Source: an uncultured Ruminococcus sp. (GTDB taxonomy: Bacteria; Bacillota; Clostridia; Oscillospirales; Ruminococcaceae). Taken from it: DNA of 64,000 nucleotides. Below, one piece after another: positions 4,194 to 25,340 of the stretch. The stretch is from the NCBI GenBank assembly GCA_964644275.1, contig CAZXVI010000006.1:8423-72422 (forward strand). Reading direction: 5' to 3'. The position numbers were made by a program, and so were the translations under genes. The stretch's first letter is position 1; each line of letters starts with the position of its first letter. The notes beneath the pieces were generated by a model. The model saw only the letters and a program-made list of their open reading frames with translations. It was not told the origin of the DNA and did no database searches.

Positions 4194-4197
4194 ATAC

Positions 4198-4365
4198 TTA
4201 GGATAGAGGCGCGGCTGCGATGAGTAGCAGTTCGGAGGAGGCTCACTCCCGTGAGGTTCTGCCAAAGGCAATGCCGCCGAAGATGCAATGCGTGAGCAGC
4301 TTTGTTTCTGGTGCTGTACCAAAGAGGTGCTGCACTGTCATCATGTGTGATGGAGTGCTATCGGC
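4198..4365 (+). promoter_or_regulatory. Lysine riboswitch (L-box) aptamer
   Basis: The conserved L-box blocks appear in the correct order: GGATAGAGGCGC, GATGAGTAGC, GCCGCCGAAG, CTGGTGC, ACTGTCATC, GGAGTGCTATC. The P1 arms are GATAG and CTATC. It lies upstream of lysine/DAP-pathway genes. Confidence 0.85.
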
Positions 4366-4385
4366 AAAACAACGCCAGTAATTCT

Positions 4386-4484: not shown

Positions 4485-5564
4485 ATGAAGCAGTATAATG
4501 TAGGTATCCTTGGTGCAACGGGTATGGTGGGACAGCGTTTTGCAACGCTTCTGGAGAATCATCCCTGGTTCAATGTGAAGGTGCTCGCAGCATCCCCCCG
4601 CAGCGCAGGGAAAACATATGAAGAGGCTGTTGGCGGCCGCTGGGCAATGACCACTCCCATGCCGGAAAGCATGAAGCATATGATCATCCGTGACCTGAAT
4701 GCAGAGATCAATGCAATTGCTGCTGAAGTAGATTTTGTATTCTGTGCAGTGGATATGAAGAAGGACGAAATCAAAGCACTGGAAGAAGCATATGCCAAGG
4801 CAGAATGCCCCGTCATCTCCAACAACTCTGCACACCGTTTCACTCCCGATGTTCCGATGGTTGTACCGGAAATCAATCCTGACCACATTGAGATCATTGC
4901 ATCCCAGAAGCAGCGTCTGGGTACAAAAAGAGGCTTTATCGCCGTGAAGTCCAACTGCTCCATCCAGAGCTATGTTCCTGCTCTGCATCCGCTGAGAAAG
5001 TTCGGTCTGAAAAATGTACTGGCATGCACCTATCAGGCAATCTCCGGTGCGGGCAAGACCTTTGAAACATGGCCGGAAATGGTAGATAACCTGATTCCGT
5101 TCATCGGCGGTGAGGAAGAAAAGTCCGAACAGGAACCGCTGAAGGTGTGGGGTACCATTGAGAACGGCCAGATTGTAAAGGCATCCGCTCCCAATATTAC
5201 TACACAGTGCCTGCGTGTGCCGGTTTCCGATGGCCATACAGCTGCTGTATTTGTTTCCTTCGAACAGAAGCCTGAGAAGGAAGAAATTCTGGAGCTGTGG
5301 AAAAATTTCAAGGGTGTTCCCCAGGAGCTGGAACTGCCCTCTGCTCCGAAGCAGTTCATTCATTACTTTACAGAGGACAACAGACCCCAGGCACATCTGG
5401 ACCGCAACCTGGAGAAAGGTATGGCGGTTTCCGTTGGTCGTCTGCGTGAAGATACACAGTTTGACTATAAGTTTGTCTGCCTGTCCCACAACACCCTGAG
5501 AGGTGCTGCCGGCGGCGGTGTACTCCTTGCTGAGCTTCTCGCAGCAAAGGGTTACTTTGACTAA
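4485..5564 (+). CDS. asd: Aspartate-semialdehyde dehydrogenase
   Basis: MKQYNVGILGATGMVGQRF shows the Rossmann GxxGxxG motif, and the active-site region KSNCSIQS is present. The true start is ATG 4485 after AGGAGAAG. The track's upstream extension from 4302 covers the riboswitch. Confidence 0.95.
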   Translation: MKQYNVGILGATGMVGQRFATLLENHPWFNVKVLAASPRSAGKTYEEAVGGRWAMTTPMPESMKHMIIRDLNAEINAIAAEVDFVFCAVDMKKDEIKALEEAYAKAECPVISNNSAHRFTPDVPMVVPEINPDHIEIIASQKQRLGTKRGFIAVKSNCSIQSYVPALHPLRKFGLKNVLACTYQAISGAGKTFETWPEMVDNLIPFIGGEEEKSEQEPLKVWGTIENGQIVKASAPNITTQCLRVPVSDGHTAAVFVSFEQKPEKEEILELWKNFKGVPQELELPSAPKQFIHYFTEDNRPQAHLDRNLEKGMAVSVGRLREDTQFDYKFVCLSHNTLRGAAGGGVLLAELLAAKGYFD

Positions 5565-12676: not shown

Positions 12677-12690
12677 ATAGGAACATCATC

Positions 12691-12814
12691 ATTCTTCTCC
12701 CATCCGGACTATACCGTCGGTTTCGGATTCTCACCGAATCAACCCCTGTAAGGCTCACGGACTTAGGCATACACCATCACCGTCGGTTATGAGTTACACA
12801 TACCCCGAAGAATA
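12691..12814 (-). promoter_or_regulatory. FMN riboswitch (RFN element) aptamer
   Basis: The minus strand contains TTCTTCGGGG..ACCGACGGTGA..AGTCCGTGAGCC..GATTCGGTGAGAATCCGAAACCGACGGTATAGTCCGGATGGGAGAAGAA. This matches the conserved RFN core and P1 closure, upstream of a rib operon. Confidence 0.9.
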
Positions 12815-12830
12815 CAATTACACTTTTTAT

Positions 12831-14672: not shown

Positions 14673-15509
14673 ATGCGATCGCTCATCCAGCAATACCATC
14701 CCATCACTGCTACGCCATTCCGGAATGATGAAACCTACTGTGAGCTTACACCATGCAGCGCTTTACAACCCTATATCCGATGCTTCTGGGGCACAAGGCA
14801 TCCTGTTGCAAGCGGACTGACACCCATTGCAGATGAGCTTGTCATCCCCGATACTTGCATGGACATCATCTTTGACATCGACTACACACGGAACAGCTGC
14901 AGCGGGTTCTTCTGCGCACTGGATGAGCATTCCTACCACTCCCATGGCACAAACAGCGGAACTCTGACAGCCACCTTTGCCATTCGCTTCTATGCATGGA
15001 CGGCAATTCTCTTTGCTGAGCAGGATTTCCAGGAAAGCAGGAACCAAAGCTTCTGCTTGGATACATTCTATCATGAGCTCAGGTCCGATCTGGAGCCGCT
15101 GCTGTTCGATATGCCGTCCCTCCGTGAAAAAGCAGAAATTGCAGAGAAATTTCTGCTGAACAGGCTCCGGCTGAACCGCATCAATCCTGATCTTATGAAT
15201 GCCATCCACCATATGCTCGATACCAGCGGACGGGCAAGGATCTCCGATCTCTGCGGCTATACTGCTGTATCGGAAAAACAGCTGGAGCGTATGTTCCGAT
15301 ATAATATGGGGGTTTCACCGAAGACCTTTTCTTCCCTGCTCCGCTATCAGCTTCTGTGGCAGGATATGGTATTCCGTTCTGATTTCAATGTGCTGGATGC
15401 TGTGGAACAATACGGCTACACCGACCAGTCCCATCTGCTGCATGACTTTAAAAAACGGCACCTGATGACACCAAAACAGGCGGTGGAATTTGCAATGCAA
15501 AGAAGATAA
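14673..15509 (+). CDS. AraC-type HTH transcriptional regulator with a non-cupin N-terminal domain
   Basis: The C-terminal segment ISDLCGYTAVSEKQLERMFRYNMGVSPKTFSSLLRYQ..YGYTDQSHLLHDFKKRHLMTPKQ is AraC-type. The N-terminal domain (LQPYIRCFWGT..VIPDTCMDIIF) is of unknown function. Confidence 0.8.
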   Translation: MRSLIQQYHPITATPFRNDETYCELTPCSALQPYIRCFWGTRHPVASGLTPIADELVIPDTCMDIIFDIDYTRNSCSGFFCALDEHSYHSHGTNSGTLTATFAIRFYAWTAILFAEQDFQESRNQSFCLDTFYHELRSDLEPLLFDMPSLREKAEIAEKFLLNRLRLNRINPDLMNAIHHMLDTSGRARISDLCGYTAVSEKQLERMFRYNMGVSPKTFSSLLRYQLLWQDMVFRSDFNVLDAVEQYGYTDQSHLLHDFKKRHLMTPKQAVEFAMQRR

Positions 15510-15582
15510 TGTCGTTTTTTTACAAGACAGATTTTATTCCTTGTGTTATACTGTTTTCAGTACTACAATTCGGGAGGTTACC

Positions 15583-16500
15583 ATGAATACATTTGAAAAA
15601 GCAAGAAATTTTATCTATCGCAATGCGCGTCCCCTTGACCTGGCACGCTGGCAGTTTCATTTTGAAAATGGCAGTATTGAAGGTGTTCTGCAATCACTGG
15701 CTGCTTATCAGAATGCGGACGGGGGGTTCGGGCATGCTCTGGAGGCCGATTGCTGGAATCCCCACTCCTCGCCCATCCAGACATGGGCAGCAACAGAAGT
15801 TCTGCACGAAACCGGATTTACCGATGCCGCACATCCCATCATTACAGGAATTCTGCACTATCTGGAAAGCGGCGCGGATTTTGATACACCCCATAATCAA
15901 TGGATGAACACTGTTCCGGACAACAATAACTTTCCACATGCGATCTGGTGGGAGTACAATGGAAATGGCGAGTTCCGTTACAACCCCACAGCAGCACTGG
16001 CAGGATTTGCTGTACGATTTGCAGACAGGCACTCCGCCCTTTATGAAACAGGATGTACTATTGCCAGGCAGGCTGCGGACTGGTTCATGGACCAGGAGCC
16101 ATTTGAAGAAATGCATGTGACAAACTGTTTTGTACGGCTGTATGAATACCTGTGTGAAGCCAAGGTAAAGCTCACAGATATGGCGCTGTTCAAGGAAAAA
16201 CTGATACAGCAGGTGAACTACAATATCTGCAGAGCGCCTGAAAAATGGGGAACGGAGTACGTTACCAAGCCATCCGAGCTGATCCGTTCCCGTGACGATA
16301 TGTTCTATGGGGATAATGCAGAACTTGCAGAGTTGGAATGTGATTTCATTATCCAGAGCCAGCTTCCCGACGGCGCATATCCTGTTACATGGGAGTGGTA
16401 TACGGATGACAAGGAATTCGAGGTAGCGGCAAACTGGTGGAAAGGAAATTTAGTGATTCGCAATATGCGATATCTGAAGGGGTTTGGAAAATTGCAATGA
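15583..16500 (+). CDS. Hypothetical protein, possibly alpha/alpha-toroid-like
   Basis: Start is ATG 15583 after GGGAGG. LAAYQNADGGFGHALE and QSQLPDGAYP resemble the Q-x-x-DGG(F/W) repeats of prenyltransferase/terpene-cyclase-type toroids. No specific family recognised. Confidence 0.7.
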   Translation: MNTFEKARNFIYRNARPLDLARWQFHFENGSIEGVLQSLAAYQNADGGFGHALEADCWNPHSSPIQTWAATEVLHETGFTDAAHPIITGILHYLESGADFDTPHNQWMNTVPDNNNFPHAIWWEYNGNGEFRYNPTAALAGFAVRFADRHSALYETGCTIARQAADWFMDQEPFEEMHVTNCFVRLYEYLCEAKVKLTDMALFKEKLIQQVNYNICRAPEKWGTEYVTKPSELIRSRDDMFYGDNAELAELECDFIIQSQLPDGAYPVTWEWYTDDKEFEVAANWWKGNLVIRNMRYLKGFGKLQ

Positions 16501-18173: not shown

Positions 18174-18202
18174 TTGACGAAACACGGAAAATGTGATATA
18201 CT
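18174..18202 (+). promoter_or_regulatory. SigmaA-type promoter of the B12-riboswitch operon
   Basis: TTGACG (18174-18179), a 17-nt spacer, then TATACT (18197-18202) with TGa extended -10. Confidence 0.7.
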
Positions 18203-18289: not shown

Positions 18290-18440
18290 TAGCAGCAATT
18301 GAATAGTGTTTCGCAGTTCGGTTCCGTTCATCGGATGAGAGGGAAGTTCGGTGCAAATCCGTCGCAACCATCATTACCGTAATTGGAGCAGACATTCTCC
18401 TTAAGTCGGGATACTCACCGGACAATGCGAAGGTACCGGC
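18290..18440 (+). promoter_or_regulatory. Cobalamin riboswitch, compact form
   Basis: The core reads AGAGGGAAGTTCGGTGCAAATCCG..ACCGTAATTGGAGC with a B12-box-like AAGTCGGGATACTCACC. I do not see the GCCACTG..GGGAAGGC peripheral element of long AdoCbl-type members. Boundaries are approximate. Confidence 0.75.
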
Positions 18441-18540
18441 AGGCGTTTCGTTTGCCGCAGCATTTTTGGATATGAAAAGTGCAGCCGTTTGATGTTTCAG
18501 GGAAAGGTGTATTCGTTTGCCCGGAGCAGATAAATCGCTG

Positions 18541-18581
18541 CGCTTTTTTGTTGTTCATACAGCAAAAAAGCGTTTCTTTTT
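18541..18581 (+). terminator. Intrinsic terminator of the cobalamin riboswitch expression platform
   Basis: A 10-bp stem pairs CGCTTTTTTG with CAAAAAAGCG around a 12-nt loop, followed by TTTCTTTTT, just upstream of the RBS GGGAGAGG. Confidence 0.8.
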
Positions 18582-18594
18582 GGGAGAGGTAGTT

Positions 18595-18810
18595 ATGGTG
18601 AAGGAAAAGCTGACCAAATCGGATTGTCTTGTCCTCTTAAAGGACAAGCATGCTTCCCTGTTGGAAAAGGGAGAGAACCGGTATCCGAAGCGCTCGGATT
18701 TTTCCGAACGTGAGGTGGTGGCGATCAAAGCATTCCTCGGTCCATGGCCAAGAGCACTGGAAGCTGCCGGAGTCAAACCGCCCGGATCCCGTATAAAGAA
18801 ACGGCATTGA
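18595..18810 (+). CDS. Small protein resembling a single 'homing-endonuclease-associated repeat' (HTH-like) unit
   Basis: 71 aa: MVKEKLTKSDCLVLLKDKHASLLEKGENRYPKRSDFSEREVVAIKAFLGPWPRALEAAGVKP.. The pattern P-x-R-x-D-F ... (F/L)G-x-W-x-x-A-L-E-A-A-G-(L/V) matches that repeat family. Start is ATG 18595 after the terminator and RBS. Confidence 0.6.
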   Translation: MVKEKLTKSDCLVLLKDKHASLLEKGENRYPKRSDFSEREVVAIKAFLGPWPRALEAAGVKPPGSRIKKRH

Positions 18811-18875: not shown

Positions 18876-19814
18876 ATGAAACAATTATTTGCATCCCTGC
18901 TTTCTGTACTGGCAGTGACAGCTGCCTGCACCGGAGCCGTTTTTGCCGAAGAAACCGATTCTGTGAATGTATATGTCACAATTTCTGATGCGGAAGGCAC
19001 TCTGGCACTTGCTGCCGAAAGCATCGCCGTTTCCGACATAGACGGTGACGGTGCCCTTACCATCAATGATGCACTGTACCTTGCCCATGAAGCATGCTAT
19101 GACGGCGGTGCCGCTGCCGGCTATGCTTCTGCTTACGGCGATTATGGTCTGAGTCTGAACAAGCTTTGGGGTACAGAAAACGGCGGCAGCTATGGCTATT
19201 ATGTGAACAACGCTTCTGCATGGTCCCTTGCAGATCCCGTTGCGGACGGCGATTATATCAATGCCTTTGTGTATACGGATCTGAATGCATGGTCGGATAC
19301 CTACTGCTATTTTGACGCCAACTCTGTATCGGCTGAAGCCGGTGAAGAAGTAACACTTACCCTACTGGCAGCCGGATATGATGCCGACTGGAATCCTGCT
19401 GTACTTCCTGTGGAGGATGCCATCATTACAATTGACGGAGAAGCCTCCGACTGGCGGACTGATGCTGAGGGCAAGGTAACATTGTCCTTTAAAAACGGCG
19501 GAAACTTTGTGATCAGTGCAGTTTCTGACACGCAGATTCTTGTGCCGCCTGTTTGCAAGGCTGCTGTCACAGGGACAGAGGAAGAAACCGCTGCGCCAAC
19601 GGAAGCCCTCGAAGCTACAGAAGCAGAGCCAACAGAAACCACTGCTTCAGAAGAACCGACGGAGGCAGATACGCAAGCAGCTGCTTCCGATGCAAAGGGC
19701 ACTGTGACGTCCCCGGATACCGGAAATTCCTCCGGTCTCTGTGCCGCAGGTGCAGGGGCATTGGCCTGCCTCGGCATCGTAACAGCTGCACGTAAGCGCA
19801 ATCATGAGAAATAA
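18876..19814 (+). CDS. Sortase-anchored cell-wall protein with a DUF4430-like N-terminal module
   Basis: A signal peptide is present (MKQLFASLLSVLAVTAACTGAVFA). The C-terminal sorting signal is SPDTG, then a hydrophobic stretch, then RKRNHEK. There is a Ca-loop-like DIDGDGALTINDAL. WGTENGGSYGYYVNN..VADGDYINAFVY is reminiscent of the DUF4430 C-terminal pattern. A T/E/A-rich stalk follows. Confidence 0.8.
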   Translation: MKQLFASLLSVLAVTAACTGAVFAEETDSVNVYVTISDAEGTLALAAESIAVSDIDGDGALTINDALYLAHEACYDGGAAAGYASAYGDYGLSLNKLWGTENGGSYGYYVNNASAWSLADPVADGDYINAFVYTDLNAWSDTYCYFDANSVSAEAGEEVTLTLLAAGYDADWNPAVLPVEDAIITIDGEASDWRTDAEGKVTLSFKNGGNFVISAVSDTQILVPPVCKAAVTGTEEETAAPTEALEATEAEPTETTASEEPTEADTQAAASDAKGTVTSPDTGNSSGLCAAGAGALACLGIVTAARKRNHEK

Positions 19815-21654
19815 GTTCTTTGCCGGATTGCTCTGTACTCTGCTTTTGCTGAGTATGGGCTTTTCACCGGTCAGAACCTATGCGGAAACCGTCGATGAGG
19901 TGCAAAGCCTTATCGACGGTATTGTTGACTTTCAGCTGAACAGCAGTGGTGCAGATTCCGTTCAGGACTGGATCAATAGTACCCTGACAGCAAATGCCGG
20001 CAGTACATCGGAATGGTATATTCTGGCACTGAGCCAGAACGGAACCAACTATGACTTTTCATCCTATGAGGCTGCTTTGACTTCTTATCTCAGCGGAACA
20101 ACCGTAGCAAGCGCAACCTCCCGTCAGAAATACGCTCTTGTTCTTATTGCAGTGGGAAGCAGCAATACCTATATTTCCGAAGCGCTGCATTCCTCCATTG
20201 GCATGCAGGGAATTATGAGCTGGGTATATGGTCTGCATCTGCTGAATAACGGTTATACCAGTGACAGCTATAACGCTGGGGAAATTGTCAGCCAGCTGCT
20301 TTCCATGCAGCTGAGTGACGGCGGCTGGGCACTGTCCGGCAGTGTATCGGATGTGGATGTGACAGCCATGACGGTGCAGGCATTGGCACCGTACTATTCC
20401 GCAAACAAAGCTGCCATCGACCGTGCTGTATCCCTCCTTTCACAGAAACAGCTGGACAGCGGCGATTACGCAAGCTATGGCGTTGCAAATCCGGAAAGCA
20501 CGGCACAGGTCATTACGGCACTTTCCGCCCTTGGAATTGACTGCCTGTCGGATTCACGCTTTATCAAGAACGGAAACACCTTGCTGGATGGCATTGCAAA
20601 ATACCAGCTGGCTGACGGCAGCATCAGCCATACAGAAGGCGGTGCCTTCAATCAGATGGCAACTGTGCAGGTGTTTTATGGGCTGACGGCCTATATCAGG
20701 CAGCAAAGAGGCGGGAGTTCACTGTATCTCCTGGATAACCGCAGTCCGGAGGCGCTTTCCGGCACAGCTCCTGCACCAACGGAAGCGCCTGCTGTACAGA
20801 CGAATACACCTGCAGTTTCTCCGTCAACGGAGGGACAGACAGTCCGTCCGGATGCACCTGCTCCGACAGAAACAGAATGCACTGCTGCGGAAACAATGCA
20901 GACAAGTACATTCATCGAAAGCACCGCAGGAACCGCAGGAACCAACAGGGAAACAACCATAACTGCAATAAACAGCAGCACAGCAGTATCCCCAACAACA
21001 AGCACGGAATCGACAGAAACAGAAGTCATCACGGAATCAGAACCCAATACGGAAGAGAATGGGAGCAGGAATTCCGGGGGCTACAAGCCATGGGCATGCC
21101 TGATAGTGATCGGTATTGGCGGTACAGTCTGTCTGATCTTGTTCCTTGTCAAAAAACGCCATCCCAAGAACTTTATTGCTGTTGTGCTGCTCACCGGACT
21201 GGGAATCGTCTTCATCTGCCTGACTAACTTCCAGAGTGCAGAGGATTACTATCATGGAGAAAACAGCGAGAAAGCAAACAGCATCGGCACGGTAACCATG
21301 ACCATCCGCTGCGACACAATTACAGACAAAGGCGATGGGGATTATATTCCGAAGGATGGTGTCATACTGGATGTGACAGCATTTTCCATTGCGGATGGAG
21401 ACACGGTATTTACAATACTGACAGAAGCGGCGCAGGCCTATGGCATTCAGTTGGAATACAGCGGCAGCCCGAAGCTGGCATATGTTTCAGGGATCAACTA
21501 CATCTATGAATTTGAGTTCGGTGATTTGTCCGGATGGGTCTATCACGTCAACGGTACTGCACCGTCCGTGGGCTGCGGTGAGTACCTGCTAACGGACGGC
21601 GATGTTATCGAATGGCACTATACCTGTGATTTAGGCAATGATGTAAATAAGTAG
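19804..21654 (+). CDS. Membrane-tethered protein: signal peptide, alpha/alpha-toroid repeats, TM hairpin, DUF4430 (transcobalamin beta-domain-like) domain
   Basis: Toroid-type repeats are MQLSDGGWAL, KQLDSGDYASYG and YQLADGSISH. A T/P/E-rich linker follows. Two hydrophobic helices (WACLIVIGIGGTVCLILFLV and FIAVVLLTGLGIVFICL) flank KKRHPKN. The C-terminal part DGDTVFTILTEAAQAYGIQLEYSGS..YIYEFEFGDLSGWVYHVNG..LTDGDVIEWHYT is classic DUF4430. Confidence 0.85.
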   Translation: MRNKFFAGLLCTLLLLSMGFSPVRTYAETVDEVQSLIDGIVDFQLNSSGADSVQDWINSTLTANAGSTSEWYILALSQNGTNYDFSSYEAALTSYLSGTTVASATSRQKYALVLIAVGSSNTYISEALHSSIGMQGIMSWVYGLHLLNNGYTSDSYNAGEIVSQLLSMQLSDGGWALSGSVSDVDVTAMTVQALAPYYSANKAAIDRAVSLLSQKQLDSGDYASYGVANPESTAQVITALSALGIDCLSDSRFIKNGNTLLDGIAKYQLADGSISHTEGGAFNQMATVQVFYGLTAYIRQQRGGSSLYLLDNRSPEALSGTAPAPTEAPAVQTNTPAVSPSTEGQTVRPDAPAPTETECTAAETMQTSTFIESTAGTAGTNRETTITAINSSTAVSPTTSTESTETEVITESEPNTEENGSRNSGGYKPWACLIVIGIGGTVCLILFLVKKRHPKNFIAVVLLTGLGIVFICLTNFQSAEDYYHGENSEKANSIGTVTMTIRCDTITDKGDGDYIPKDGVILDVTAFSIADGDTVFTILTEAAQAYGIQLEYSGSPKLAYVSGINYIYEFEFGDLSGWVYHVNGTAPSVGCGEYLLTDGDVIEWHYTCDLGNDVNK

Positions 21655-21672: not shown

Positions 21673-22551
21673 ATGAAGTCCTTTGCAGAGTATCATCCCA
21701 TGGCAATCACAATTTATTTTCTGACAACTGCCGGAATTGCTATGTTCTGCTCAAATCCTGTCATCACTGCAATTTCGCTGTTCGGCGCTCTGCTGCTCTT
21801 TGTCATCAGAAACGGACGCAGGCACGCAGCATCCCATCTGTATTTTCTTGGACTGTTTCTGGTGATGGCACTCATCAATCCCCTTGTGTCCCACAATGGC
21901 GCAACGGTACTCTTTGTCATGAATCATCATCCGGTCACAATGGAGGCGCTGCTGTACGGTATCGGAGCTTCCGCCGGTATTCTTGCCGTCCTCTACTGGT
22001 TCCGCAGCTTTTCACAGATTATGACAAGGGATAAGCTACTGTATGTTTTCGGGGCATTATCTCCGAAGCTGTCGTTGGTGCTTTCCATGGCCATCCGCTA
22101 TGTCTCCCTCTTCAGCCGACAGACAAAAAAGGTAATCCAATCCCAGAAAGCGCTTGGTCTTTACAAGGAAGACAACATCATGGACAATCTCAGAGGCAGC
22201 CTCCGTGTGTTTTCCGTCATGCTTACCTGGGCTTTGGAAAACGGCATTATCACGGCGGACAGCATGGCAGCAAGAGGTTATGGCATCGGAAAGCGAACCC
22301 ATTTTTCCATCTTCCGTTTCCGGAAATCGGACGGGCTGCTGCTCTGTCTGAGCCTGCTGCTCTTTGCAGTTACCTGCACGGGGATGGGCTGCGGTGCGCT
22401 GGAGTTCCACTATTACCCCACCATTACAGCGTTAAGGTGTTCCCCCCTGGCGGCTGTCAGTTATGGATCTTACGGACTGCTGGTGCTTCTGCCGGCAGTC
22501 ATTGAAACGGAGGAGGCAATCAAATGGAACTGCTGTCTGTCGAAAATCTGA
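21673..22551 (+). CDS. ecfT: ECF transporter transmembrane (T) component, CbiQ/EcfT family
   Basis: A polytopic membrane protein with the coupling-helix region ..SMAARGYG.. and CbiQ-like organisation. GGAGG RBS. Confidence 0.85.
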   Translation: MKSFAEYHPMAITIYFLTTAGIAMFCSNPVITAISLFGALLLFVIRNGRRHAASHLYFLGLFLVMALINPLVSHNGATVLFVMNHHPVTMEALLYGIGASAGILAVLYWFRSFSQIMTRDKLLYVFGALSPKLSLVLSMAIRYVSLFSRQTKKVIQSQKALGLYKEDNIMDNLRGSLRVFSVMLTWALENGIITADSMAARGYGIGKRTHFSIFRFRKSDGLLLCLSLLLFAVTCTGMGCGALEFHYYPTITALRCSPLAAVSYGSYGLLVLLPAVIETEEAIKWNCCLSKI

Positions 22552-24158
22552 GCTTTACCTATCCCCTCTGTACAGAACCGGCAGTCAGGCAGGTTTCCTT
22601 CCGGATACACCGGGGAGAGCTGATTACTGTCTGCGGCGCAACGGGCAGCGGAAAATCCACGCTTCTGCGGCTGCTGAAGCGTGAGCTGACACCCCTGGGA
22701 ACATTGTCGGGAACCATCCGTTTCCGGGGAAAACCTCTTTCTTCCCTTTCCGAAAAGGAGGCTGCCGCAAAAATCGGCTTTGTCATGCAGAAACCGGAGC
22801 AGCAGATTGTTACGGACAGAGTCTGGCACGAGCTTGCTTTCGGACTGGAAAATCTACAGATTCCGCAGGAGAGCATTGCACAGCGTATTGCTGAAATGGC
22901 AAGCTATTTCGGCATCGAAAGCTGGTATGAAAAGGATGTATCCGAGCTTTCCGGCGGTCAGAAACAGCTGCTGAATCTGGCTGCGGTAATGGTGATGCAG
23001 CCGGATGTTCTGATTCTGGATGAACCTACTGCACAGCTGGACCCCATTGCGGCATCGGATTTTATCCGGACGCTGAAACAGCTGAACAACGATTTTGCTC
23101 TGACGATCATTGTTGTGGAGCATCGGCTGGAGGAGGTCATTCCTCTCTGCGACCGGCTGATGGTAATGGAGCAGGGACAGCTTCTCCACTTTGATACGCC
23201 CCGGACAGTTATCGCCAGGCTCCACGACAAGCCGGAGCTGCTCTGTGCTATGCCGGCAGCGGCAAGGCTGTACAGCAGACTTTCACTGCATGGAGAATGT
23301 CCGCTGACAGTGCGTGAAGGCAGAGAATTTCTCGAAACCCATTTCCAGAACAGGGTACAAAGCCTGCCAGCAGCCGATCATCCCCATGCTCCCGGTGCTG
23401 CTCTGGAGTTCCGGAATGTTTTCTTCCGCTATGATCGGAGCCAGCCGGATGTGCTCCATGATTTGCAGCTGACGGTGTACGAACAGGAGATTTTCTGTAT
23501 TCTCGGCGGAAATGGCTCTGGGAAAACCACTGCCCTGGGCACTGCTGCCGGACTACTGAAGCCCTACAGCGGAACGGTCAGGGTCTTCGGGGAAAAAATC
23601 AGGGACTACAAAAATCAGTCCCTCTACCGGAACTGCCTTGCAGTCCTGCCCCAGGATGTGCAGACTGTCTTTCTGAAAAACACGGTCCGGGAGGAGCTTG
23701 CCGATATGGGGGACATGGACGAACATCTGCCCTTCAATATCCGGCATTTATATGATCAGCATCCCTATGATTTGTCCGGGGGGGAACAGCAGCTTGTAGC
23801 ACTTGCTAAAATTCTGGCATTGCGGCCAAAGCTTCTGCTGCTGGATGAGCCGACCAAGGGACTGGATGCCCATGCCAAGCTGCAGTTCACTCATATCATG
23901 AGGGAATTGCAGAAACAGGGTATGACCATCATTACCGTTACCCACGATGTGGAACTGGCAGCGCTCTGTGCGGACCGGTGTGCACTGTTCTTTCGGGGAA
24001 ATGTGGTGTCAACGGATATTCCTTCCCGTTTTTTTGCAGAGAACAGCTTTTATACAACTGCTATCAGCCGCATGACACGGGGCTTCTATACAGGCGCAGT
24101 TACCGTGGAAGATGCCGCTGTCCTTTGCGAGAGAAACGGATGGAAGGAGGAGCGGTAA
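22524..24158 (+). CDS. ECF transporter ATPase, fused duplicated A-A' component
   Basis: Two complete ABC cassettes are present: GATGSGKST / LSGGQKQLL / ILDEPTAQLD and GGNGSGKTT / LSGGEQQLV / LLDEPTKGLD. Confidence 0.9.
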   Translation: MELLSVENLSFTYPLCTEPAVRQVSFRIHRGELITVCGATGSGKSTLLRLLKRELTPLGTLSGTIRFRGKPLSSLSEKEAAAKIGFVMQKPEQQIVTDRVWHELAFGLENLQIPQESIAQRIAEMASYFGIESWYEKDVSELSGGQKQLLNLAAVMVMQPDVLILDEPTAQLDPIAASDFIRTLKQLNNDFALTIIVVEHRLEEVIPLCDRLMVMEQGQLLHFDTPRTVIARLHDKPELLCAMPAAARLYSRLSLHGECPLTVREGREFLETHFQNRVQSLPAADHPHAPGAALEFRNVFFRYDRSQPDVLHDLQLTVYEQEIFCILGGNGSGKTTALGTAAGLLKPYSGTVRVFGEKIRDYKNQSLYRNCLAVLPQDVQTVFLKNTVREELADMGDMDEHLPFNIRHLYDQHPYDLSGGEQQLVALAKILALRPKLLLLDEPTKGLDAHAKLQFTHIMRELQKQGMTIITVTHDVELAALCADRCALFFRGNVVSTDIPSRFFAENSFYTTAISRMTRGFYTGAVTVEDAAVLCERNGWKEER

Positions 24159-24844
24159 TGCTTTTTATCCAGAATAAACGGACAAGGCAAATTCTGAAAT
24201 GGAGTATTCCCCTGCTTCTGATTCCTGCCATCGTAGTGCTGGGGGCACTGGTTTTTCACGAGAAGCGTTATTTGTTCATTTCCTTTTCTGTTGCGGTCCT
24301 TGCTGTCATTCTGTTTCTGGCAGGCATTGAACACAAACAGGTCGGCACAAGGCGCATGGTCATTGTATCCGTCATGACGGCACTGTGCATTGCAGGACGG
24401 TTCATTCCTTTTTTTAAACCAATCACAGCGCTGACTGTCATCACATCTATTTATCTTGGCAGTGAAGCAGGGTTTCTGACAGGTGCCATGGCGGCGGTAC
24501 TGTCCAATTTCTACTTCGGACAGGGACCGTGGACACCCTTTCAGATGCTGGCATGGGGCATGATTGGCTGGATAGCCGGATTTCTTGCCGGACCGCTACA
24601 GCGATGCAGGGCCTTTCTGCTGGCATACGGCATACTGTCCGGCATAGCCTATTCGTTTATGATGGATGTGTGGACGGTGCTGTGGTATAATGACCACTTT
24701 GATTTGGCACTGTATCTGGCGGCGTTGGGCACAGCCATTCCCTATACTGTGATGTATGCAGTTTCCAACTTTCTCTTCTTGTGGTGGATGGCTAAGCCAT
24801 TCGGTGAAAAACTGGGACGGATAAAGCTAAAATACGGAGTCTGA
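24158..24844 (+). CDS. ECF transporter substrate-specific (S) component, candidate corrinoid-specific
   Basis: About 228 aa with roughly 6 hydrophobic helices. The ATG overlaps the ATPase stop (TAATG). Position and size fit an S component. The substrate is inferred only from riboswitch context. Confidence 0.7.
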   Translation: MLFIQNKRTRQILKWSIPLLLIPAIVVLGALVFHEKRYLFISFSVAVLAVILFLAGIEHKQVGTRRMVIVSVMTALCIAGRFIPFFKPITALTVITSIYLGSEAGFLTGAMAAVLSNFYFGQGPWTPFQMLAWGMIGWIAGFLAGPLQRCRAFLLAYGILSGIAYSFMMDVWTVLWYNDHFDLALYLAALGTAIPYTVMYAVSNFLFLWWMAKPFGEKLGRIKLKYGV

Positions 24845-24869: not shown

Positions 24870-25145
24870 ATGCAGAACAATGAAACTAAATCACGGAATT
24901 ACGCCTATTTTTCCCATGCAGAATGTGAATTTTTCCCCTGCCATGAACATGCGGACAGGAGAAACTTCAACTGTCTGTTCTGCTATTGTCCATTGTATCC
25001 GCTGGGGACACAGTGCGGCGGAGCGTTTGTCATTCTGCCAAACGGCACCAAGGACTGCAGCGCATGCCTTTTTCCCCACCTTCGTGAGAATTATGATGCT
25101 GTAATCGAAAGATACAGTGAAATCTGCAGCAAAATGTTCAGATGA
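24870..25145 (+). CDS. Cysteine-rich small domain (metal-binding) protein
   Basis: 91 aa with AECEFFPCHE..FNCLFCYCPLYP..CGG..DCSACLFPH, the 'cysteine-rich small domain' pattern often found near or fused to cobalamin-biosynthesis genes. AGGAGG RBS. Confidence 0.75.
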   Translation: MQNNETKSRNYAYFSHAECEFFPCHEHADRRNFNCLFCYCPLYPLGTQCGGAFVILPNGTKDCSACLFPHLRENYDAVIERYSEICSKMFR

Positions 25146-25201: not shown

Positions 25202-25240
25202 GAGGATTAGCAGCAAAATAATGGCAGTCAGGAACAGAGC

Positions 25241-25270
25241 AAAGCCGCTGGATGTGAATCCAGCGGCTTT
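25241..25270. terminator. Bidirectional hairpin terminator between the ECF operon and engB
   Basis: A 13-bp stem, AAAGCCGCTGGAT-GTGA-ATCCAGCGGCTTT, with T-containing tails on both strands. Confidence 0.6.
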
Positions 25271-25340
25271 GTATATTCCTTCTTCCTGTTCTATATCTGT
25301 AATCCGACGCTCTGCATGACGCCGCCATAAACGACCAGCT

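Follow-up and report, generated by a model that had tools for sequence, protein, structure and literature searches.

A toroid–DUF4430 protein with an interdomain transmembrane hairpin, encoded in a riboswitch-preceded ECF transporter operon of Ruminococcus: a candidate corrinoid-capture protein

Bacterial relatives of the animal vitamin B12 carriers were predicted in 2007, in the purely computational study in which Burroughs, Balaji, Iyer and Aravind defined the SLBB superfamily (PMC1796856). The accessible text of that study describes bacterial SLBB domains of the transcobalamin clade that are fused with an alpha/alpha toroid on either side, occur with signal peptides, Gram-positive anchors and a second paralogous SLBB protein in the operon, and are linked to CbiO- and CbiQ-like genes in hosts without B12 synthesis; it predicts a role in B12 scavenging and a transfer of the toroid–SLBB combination from Gram-positive bacteria of low GC content to animals. 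The C-terminal domain of TCN proteins is DUF4430 (PMC4350170), and ECF-CbrT is a characterized vitamin B12 transporter of the energy-coupling factor (ECF) class (PDB 6FNP; PMC5997447). Cobamide capture in Firmicutes is described as largely unknown, and the means by which Gram-positive bacteria of gut and rumen take hold of scarce cobamides at the cell surface as uncharacterized (Putnam et al. 2022, PMC8941943; a 2026 review, PMC13616437). Here we analyze a 616-amino acid (aa) protein encoded at 19804..21654 (+) in a 64,000-nucleotide (nt) stretch of contig CAZXVI010000006.1 from an uncultured Ruminococcus sp. – the stretch, at its full length, is referred to below as the window. We consider this protein likely to be a membrane-anchored extracytoplasmic corrinoid-capture protein for a dedicated, B12-repressed importer of the ECF-CbrT type.

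A preliminary description of the window had proposed that the protein consists of a signal peptide, an alpha/alpha toroid, a linker, two transmembrane (TM) helices separated by KKRHPKN, and a DUF4430 domain. All of these elements were recovered in that order by sequence inspection, Pfam, hydropathy analysis and AlphaFold2. The 616-residue translation in the list of open reading frames (ORFs) contains each of the quoted motifs: MQLSDGGWAL, KQLDSGDYASYG and YQLADGSISH form three QW-like repeats spaced ~50 aa apart, and the KKRHPKN loop and LSGWVYHVNG..GDVIEWHYT are likewise present.

From the N-terminus, the predicted signal peptide (19804..19884, +; residues 1–27) comprises an MRNK n-region, a hydrophobic core and a putative cleavage site at TYA|ET; a lipoprotein signal was ruled out, as the sequence GLLC is no lipobox. 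The toroid domain (19885..20766, +; residues 28–321) carries the three repeats and a conserved DVDVTAM motif, and is followed by a disordered linker rich in T, S, E, A and P that ends in a conserved YK (20767..21087, +; residues 322–428). The composition of this linker (residues 321–426, n = 106) includes 26 T, 14 E, 13 A, 12 S and 10 P. The TM hairpin (21088..21231, +) consists of TM1 (residues 429–449), a predicted cytoplasmic loop, KKRHPKN (450–456), and TM2 (457–476). It gives way to a tether (477–494) and the DUF4430/SLBB beta-grasp domain (495–612), together encoded at 21232..21651 (+), with conserved C503 and C591. A Kyte–Doolittle scan identified three hydrophobic segments (residues 5–23, 431–449 and 456–474), with peaks of 2.82 and 2.39 for TM1 and TM2. 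Pfam placed DUF4430 at residues 532–607 (E = 6.2e-17; 62 bits, cut-off 23.8) and gave a weak SQHop_cyclase_C match at residues 112–258; a DUF4131 match at residues 429–488 was dismissed as trivial, since it merely mirrors the two TM helices. The last 11 nt of the upstream gene, stop codon included, are shared with the beginning of this one, an arrangement repeated in a relative (L001).

We built an AlphaFold2 model on an alignment of 101 homologous sequences (mean predicted local distance difference test score, pLDDT, 83.7; predicted template modelling score, pTM, 0.68). The model contains 12–13 helices over residues 26–301 or ~31–320 (pLDDT >90), disorder at residues 329–420 (pLDDT <50), hairpin helices at 427–448 and 454–473 (pLDDT ~95), and a beta-grasp-type domain with the element order beta-beta-alpha-hairpin-beta-beta at residues 495–607. 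When the model was compared with the PDB using Foldseek, intrinsic factor (3kq4_A), rat, human and bovine transcobalamin, and haptocorrin (4kki) occupied ranks 1–15, with E values of 1e-6 to 6e-5 and alignments of 607–631 columns that span both domains. Behind the carriers ranked class II terpene cyclases and prenyltransferase beta subunits, aligned over the toroid alone. The isolated human transcobalamin beta domain (5no0, 5np4) gave target template modelling scores (TM-scores) of 0.70–0.74, with 0.74 for 5no0. As modelled, then, the protein has an alpha/alpha toroid at its N-terminus and the transcobalamin beta-domain fold at its C-terminus, in agreement with the fold assignments of the preliminary description.

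The terpene cyclase and prenyltransferase matches raised an enzymatic identity for the alpha domain, which was ruled out: the protein is exported, lies in a transporter operon and lacks the DxDD motif. The homologous-looking motif reads DVDVTAM, its third position being V in 88 of the 101 sequences, and any DxDD at all was found in the alpha region of only three of the 101. In the beta domain, Cys503 (IRCDT, nt ~21310) is invariant and Cys591 (SVGCGEY, nt ~21574) is 93% conserved, and the alpha domain has two invariant histidines, His145 and His276. These residues could form a disulfide or serve as axial ligands to cobalt.

The hairpin is a family trait. In a word-indexed protein search, 1289 clusters among those scored reached E ≤ 1e-3, and we examined the best 120 homologues, which are 473–845 aa long and reach down to ~40% identity; the named ones are annotated just as ‘DUF4430 domain-containing protein’ and are assigned to Clostridia, Eubacteriales and Ruminococcus. 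By hydropathy, all 120 share the layout of a signal peptide plus a two-TM hairpin, with two strong hydrophobic segments 25–30 residues apart and ~140–160 residues from the C-terminus. The loop between the segments is 6–12 residues long, has the consensus KKRxxKN and contains a mean of 3.9 K/R and 0.04 D/E, and the hairpin is flanked by a near-invariant YK before TM1 and TDFxSxxxYY after TM2. In 201 fused proteins, alpha domain and TM1 lie 6 to 213 aa apart (median 91), with T/S/A/E/P-rich sequence between them, and TM2 is separated from the beta domain by 2–16 aa (median 12).

We also scanned 84 loci – 80 retrieved loci, three homologue contigs and the window – with hidden Markov models (HMMs) of every part. 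Alpha domain, hairpin and beta domain are encoded in one ORF in 81 of these loci (76 by HMM, and five more in which the hairpin was recognized by hydropathy). Chance is ruled out as the source of the fusion, and so is an assembly or frameshift artefact, since the fusion is kept across hundreds of independent assemblies. In just one locus (L070) is the gene split: the break falls within the hairpin, the ORFs overlap, and the cause is probably a frameshift in a metagenome-assembled genome (MAG).

The N-terminal signal sequence, the strongly basic 6–12-residue loop and the low-complexity linker of a wall-spanning type together point to an out/in/out topology. By the positive-inside rule, the alpha domain would lie outside, the loop inside and the beta domain outside, with or without cleavage of the signal peptide. 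The earlier proposal that both domains face outward is therefore favoured by the signal sequence, the basic loop and the linker. Our search of full-text literature on DUF4430, transcobalamin-like proteins, CbrT and related subjects brought up no study of the family's biochemistry or structure, and no published description of the hairpin topology was found. On this point the view that the topology is uncharacterized holds for the hairpin but not for the two-domain architecture, the ECF-type operon or the B12 role, all of which were predicted in 2007 in the accessible text of PMC1796856; the novelty is therefore narrower than the preliminary description had implied. Within the bacterial toroid–SLBB group, the form stapled by a hairpin appears to be a variant that is very common yet undescribed.

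The genomic context links the protein strongly to cobalamin, through an upstream cobalamin riboswitch and a CbrT-like S component. The riboswitch aptamer (RF00174; 18302..18436, +) scores 39.4 bits against an Rfam gathering score of 31.5 (E = 1.8e-6). It is abutted by a terminator-like hairpin with a T-run (18437..18467, +) – a 9-bp stem with 6 GC pairs, then CAGCATTTTT – that is probably the expression platform of the riboswitch; a second hairpin lies at 18540–18573. Upstream, the region's best candidate for a sigma-70-like promoter (18174..18202, +; TTGACG-17-TATACT with an extended TG) matches 10 of 12 positions, which is a consensus match only.

Downstream of the fusion gene, the operon encodes ECF transporter components, namely EcfT and two EcfA ATPase domains, together with an S component. 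The T component, of the CbiQ family (21673..22551, +; Pfam CbiQ, 25.1 bits, cut-off 25), occupies the same position in >55 loci. The ATPase is a fused EcfA-EcfA' (22524..24158, +) with two ABC_tran domains (E = 4.7e-58) and a match to NCBIfam ECF_ATPase_1 (349.6 bits). The S component (24158..24844, +; alternative start 24140) matches Pfam ECF-ribofla_trS with 32 bits, and its sole match among PDB sequences is 6FNP chain A, CbrT (phmmer E = 1.9e-6, query residues 65–227). All operon genes lie on the + strand between the promoter-like site and a strong terminator-like hairpin at 25239..25272 (+; 15-bp stem, 8 GC pairs) that closes the transcription unit. No NCBIfam model matched the fusion protein, its neighbour, the S component or the small proteins of the operon.

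This context is conserved. Three contigs with homologues (P0014, P0087 and P0064; L001–L003) carry the same genes and a cobalamin-clan riboswitch of 60–90 bits upstream of the operon. Among ten further loci, a riboswitch scores above its gathering score in four (L005, L006, L027 and L037), and rescanning five of the remaining six at E ≤ 0.5 gave sub-threshold AdoCbl, AdoCbl-II or Cobalamin matches in all five (L014, L020, L022, L060 and L064). These matches lie directly upstream of the first operon gene, at ~4820–4970, in L014, L020, L060 and L064, and further upstream, at 1647–1777, in L022. The leaders of many Ruminococcus-type loci match AdoCbl (RF01482) or AdoCbl-II (RF01689) and not RF00174, often just below the gathering scores but always at one and the same place upstream of the operon; such matches were located at 4896..4971 in L005, 4826..4901 in L020, 4831..4974 in L060, 4814..4960 in L064 and 4820..4911 in L014. 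The leaders in question are probably divergent riboswitch variants.

The order neighbour–fusion–EcfT–EcfAA'–S is identical in 43 of the 84 loci; most others, many of them truncated where the contig ends, show it in part or permuted. At least 580 relatives were found in a scan of species-representative genomes. Their hosts are Ruminococcus, Oscillospiraceae, Acutalibacteraceae, Lachnospiraceae, Ruminiclostridium and other Clostridia, mostly MAGs from rumen and gut, and cultured carriers include R. flavefaciens MC2020 and Ruminococcus sp. YRD2003 (loci L060 and L064).

These features suggest the following mechanism. After export and cleavage of the signal peptide, the toroid would sit outside the cell on a flexible T/S/E/P-rich leash, TM1 would run inward, the KKRHPKN loop would be cytoplasmic, and TM2 would return to the outside, keeping the DUF4430 beta-grasp domain within ~12–20 residues of the membrane surface. 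With that topology, the hairpin would stand in for the short linker that joins the two domains in transcobalamin, intrinsic factor and haptocorrin, and the connectivity from the alpha C-terminus to the beta N-terminus would be kept. A corrinoid could be bound by the membrane-proximal beta domain, with the toroid closing over it as in the animal carriers, and would then be handed to the adjacent CbrT-like S component for import by EcfT and EcfAA'. A transcobalamin-like closure of the two domains around the ligand is plausible, though unproven; isolated fragments of intrinsic factor have reportedly been seen by Fedosov and colleagues to reassemble around cobalamin. The sortase-anchored neighbour would lie further out in the cell wall, probably as a partner or relay, and cobalamin would switch the whole unit off through the riboswitch and the adjoining terminator.

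Several observations weigh against this interpretation. Full-length superposition of the model on holo carriers by Foldseek gives root-mean-square deviations (rmsd) of 12–18 Å and target-normalized TM-scores of just 0.35–0.48, and the modelled domain arrangement therefore differs from that of the holo carriers. Both folds were modelled with confidence, but a transcobalamin-like arrangement did not emerge, and so a transcobalamin-like clamp is not demonstrated. Pfam Cobalamin_bind (PF01122) gave no match in the protein even at E ≤ 10, and the family profile retrieved no transcobalamin, intrinsic factor or haptocorrin chain from PDB sequences. The nearest sequence relatives of the alpha domain are instead terpene cyclases, with profile matches to SQHop_cyclase_C proteins (E = 5e-9) and also to squalene-hopene cyclase. 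The five sub-threshold riboswitch matches fall below the Rfam gathering score, and L028 gave no riboswitch match at the gathering threshold. ECF transporters normally work without extracytoplasmic binding proteins. CbrT alone suffices in Lactobacillus delbrueckii (PMC5997447), and the sole related operon to have been studied experimentally, that of L. sakei, is reported to encode a heme importer (bioRxiv 10.1101/864751).

The L. sakei report raises the question of whether what the system captures and imports is heme or some other tetrapyrrole and not a corrinoid, as was suggested for Lsa1840 and Lsa1839. The lsa1836–1840 operon has the same components, its deletion is reported to lower heme uptake, and heme was docked into a modelled heterodimer of the L. 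sakei alpha and beta proteins; the same authors note, however, that their operon is annotated as a cobalamin transporter (bioRxiv 10.1101/864751). Pfam and NCBIfam scans of the Ruminococcus operon identified no gene or regulator related to heme, the only PDB match of the S component is CbrT, and a cobalamin-clan riboswitch stands ahead of the operon here and in nearly every surveyed relative. We therefore regard heme import by this system as improbable. A different objection concerns the fusion itself, which might be processed: cleavage at TM2 as an internal signal peptide would release a free beta domain and leave a tail-anchored alpha domain, as in split systems. TM1 with its basic tail does resemble a C-terminal anchor, TM2 followed by ..QSA|ED.. 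is superficially similar to a signal peptide, and split and tail-anchored forms exist. Yet position –3, at which signal peptidase I needs a small residue, holds Q, R, K or Y in the family motif TDFxSA, the hydrophobic stretch of TM2 is ~20 residues long, and the conserved TDFxSxxxYY forms part of a confidently modelled short helix, which together make processing the most improbable of the readings considered.

The two domains might also never form a joint clamp. The beta domain alone would then bind the corrinoid at the membrane, and the toroid would have other work to do, for example binding wall glycans, docking to the neighbour or stripping B12 from host or bacterial carriers. The modelled arrangement unlike that of the holo carriers fits this reading, as do a long and highly variable leash, alpha-only tail-anchored relatives, neighbour–alpha fusions without a beta domain (L083 and P0296), nearest sequence relatives of the alpha domain that do not bind B12, and the stand-alone SLBB/DUF4430 proteins that the accessible text of PMC1796856 describes as common. 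Against it, the domains follow one another, alpha before beta, and connect exactly as in the animal carriers, to which Foldseek aligns both of them; some members have linkers of only ~20 residues, which force the domains together; a pTM of 0.68 with 15% disorder suggests a defined placement of the domains relative to each other; and many polar residues are invariant in both the alpha and the beta domain across the 101-sequence alignment. We judge independent action of the two domains to be unlikely, and continue to favour a membrane-anchored corrinoid-capture protein that feeds the ECF transporter.

To place the hairpin among related architectures, we searched with the alpha domain alone. An exhaustive HMMER search returned 5259 representatives of 50%-identity clusters at E ≤ 1e-3, of which 1085 reached E ≤ 1e-30, and 146 new top representatives were taken as a census of variants. 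The form with an alpha domain, two TM segments and a beta domain predominates (115 of 146), followed by an alpha domain with one TM segment and a short basic tail at the end (13 of 146; e.g., ...VVLRIVKKRRH). Three join the neighbour to alpha domain, hairpin and beta domain in a triple fusion (P0267, P0273 and P0368), two combine neighbour and alpha domain without a beta domain (P0296 is such a fusion), and four are giant proteins with three toroids; the remainder look truncated. The giants (P0256, P0308, P0311 and P0313; 1491–2179 aa) have three toroid copies and a beta domain but no TM helix.

Two tail-anchored, alpha-only forms (L084, 44..1144; L085, 65..1306) consist of a toroid, a linker, one TM segment and a short basic tail that ends in a genuine stop codon; the tails of such relatives read KKRRH or RKRRNRR. 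The next gene in L085 encodes a signal-peptidase-I-like protein and not a beta domain. In a Fumia sp. (L083, 5230..7371), neighbour and alpha domain are followed by cell-wall repeats of the choline-binding type, again without a beta domain. Most plausibly, the hairpin arose by in-frame fusion of a gene for a tail-anchored alpha protein with a downstream gene for a signal-anchored beta protein, an origin that fits both the tail-anchored alpha-only variants and the separate alpha and beta genes of L. sakei.

The gene upstream of the fusion gene encodes a 312-aa surface protein (18876..19814, +), with a signal peptide, an N-domain, an immunoglobulin (Ig)-like domain, a T/E/A-rich stalk and a sortase-type anchor. 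Its C-terminus, SPDTG followed by a hydrophobic stretch and RKRNHEK, is of the sortase type, with PxTG, or (S/L)PxTG, as the family consensus. The neighbour has neither a Pfam match nor a PDB sequence match. AlphaFold2 modelled its N-domain and Ig-like domain confidently (mean pLDDT 82.6), and Foldseek returned Ig-like folds only. Longer homologues (~500 aa) add matches to Ig-like CarboxypepD_reg/DUF4198 and to dockerin-type domains. An EF-hand/dockerin-like loop in the N-domain, DxDxDGaLTINDALY, has invariant aspartates, and DxDxDG..D is conserved. The neighbour gene precedes the fusion gene in most loci. P0267, P0273, P0368, P0296 and L083 have the neighbour fused with the alpha domain; such fusions, found in several genomes, argue for a direct functional link. 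The neighbour was also considered as a DUF4430 paralogue, with a divergent SLBB as its N-domain, which is what the second paralogous SLBB protein of PMC1796856 would lead one to predict. The element order of its N-domain, beta-beta-alpha-hairpin-beta-beta, is that of transcobalamin-type SLBB domains and is the only suggestive feature: BLASTP, Pfam at E ≤ 10, global and local hhalign, and Foldseek gave no support, and hhalign against the beta domain returned a probability of 1.6%. The family profile of the neighbour did not match BtuH (7BIZ), and there was no fold match to it either.

Two small proteins complete the operon. Its first gene (18595..18810, +) encodes a 71-aa HNH_repeat-like protein (Pfam PF18780, E = 1e-4, below the cut-off). 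Homologues on the same strand occur in 36 of the 84 loci, nearly always as the operon's first gene or directly after the fusion gene (L035, L041, L047 and L071); the product is a small, conserved member of the operon and apparently cytoplasmic. The last gene before the terminator (24870..25145, +) encodes a Cys-rich small-domain protein (PF04071, E = 5.5e-26) that adjoins the operon in ~5 of the 84 loci, L003 among them. Elsewhere in the window lie a flavin mononucleotide (FMN) riboswitch (12688..12816, –; 106 bits) and a lysine riboswitch (4196..4368, +; 100 bits). A 336-aa ORF (15490..16500, +) has no Pfam match, apparently lacks a signal peptide and contains a QW-like YQNADGGFGHALE motif reminiscent of alpha/alpha-toroid repeats; its position is unrelated to the operon.

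If the 616-aa protein binds corrinoids, the system would provide a concrete capture mechanism for Clostridia, an ECF transporter that uses an extracytoplasmic binding protein – which this class is defined as lacking – and a bacterial system in which to study clamp assembly and the origin of the animal carriers. The family is abundant, consistently accompanies an ECF importer predicted to be B12-regulated, and bears on an acknowledged gap, which gives it importance for work on B12 and ECF transporters. A bolder reading, which we offer tentatively, is that this is the first ECF importer with a built-in extracytoplasmic high-affinity binding device. The interdomain linker of a transcobalamin-like clamp would be threaded through the membrane as a hairpin docked beside the S component, much as the two-TM protein CbiN docks on CbiM. 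With the neighbour, the protein would then form a wall-spanning cobamide relay of Gram-positive bacteria in gut and rumen, a long-missing counterpart of Bacteroides BtuG/H/J and a living relative of the bacterial ancestor of the animal carriers.

The likeness to Bacteroides BtuG, BtuH and BtuJ (PMC10404256, PMC8941943, PMC13616437) is by function only: these too are surface B12 binders under riboswitch control that feed a transporter, possibly as a multi-protein relay. Their folds – a beta-propeller, a novel globular fold and a jelly roll – are unrelated to those described here, and they are outer-membrane lipoproteins that feed a TonB-dependent transporter. The idea that BtuH is a DUF4430 protein is wrong; its fold is novel and unrelated (PMC13616437, PMC8941943), so it is a functional analogue only. 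Class II terpene cyclases and prenyltransferase beta subunits (squalene-hopene cyclase, drimenyl diphosphate synthase) share QW-like repeats and the toroid fold with the alpha domain, whereas the 616-aa protein has a single toroid and DVDVTAM in place of DxDD, is exported and is encoded in a transporter operon.

Two transport systems can also be compared. The S component is a homologue of CbrT from the ECF-CbrT transporter of L. delbrueckii (6FNP; PMC5997447), with E = 1.9e-6 over 163 residues, and T and A components are present in both. It differs in size, at ~228 aa against 182 aa for CbrT, and in setting: CbrT uses a shared group II ECF module and no extracytoplasmic accessory proteins, whereas this operon has its own T component, its own fused AA' and two surface proteins. 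Compared by description only, L. sakei Lsa1836–1840 (bioRxiv 10.1101/864751) comprises the same set – S component, fused AA', T component, and beta-like and alpha-like exported proteins. There alpha (Lsa1840) and beta (Lsa1839) are separate polypeptides for which heme uptake is proposed, whereas here one chain passes through the membrane and the operon follows a cobalamin riboswitch.

The mammalian carriers transcobalamin, intrinsic factor and haptocorrin (PDB 2BB5, 3KQ4, 4KKI) share with the 616-aa protein the order of an N-terminal alpha6/alpha6-type toroid and a C-terminal DUF4430 beta-grasp domain, as well as a signal peptide and an extracellular location, which for the 616-aa protein is predicted. 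In the carriers, one cobalamin is held with very high affinity where the alpha and beta domains meet. They are soluble and have a short flexible interdomain linker, in place of which the 616-aa protein has a ~100-aa disordered leash and a TM hairpin; identity is only 9–12%, and the context here is a bacterial operon. The group described by Burroughs and colleagues is likened by its published description, and the accessible text of PMC1796856 does not mention an interdomain TM hairpin, a riboswitch or a CbrT-like S component. What it does describe recurs in the window: a signal peptide, a toroid that precedes an SLBB domain of the transcobalamin clade, a CbiO-like ATPase (22524–24158) and a CbiQ-like membrane protein (21673–22551) encoded in the operon, an arrangement conserved across loci, and a second extracellular protein and a Gram-positive anchor motif. 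Judged by sequence, the 616-aa protein is not a member of the eukaryotic carrier family and belongs to the bacterial toroid–SLBB group predicted in 2007.

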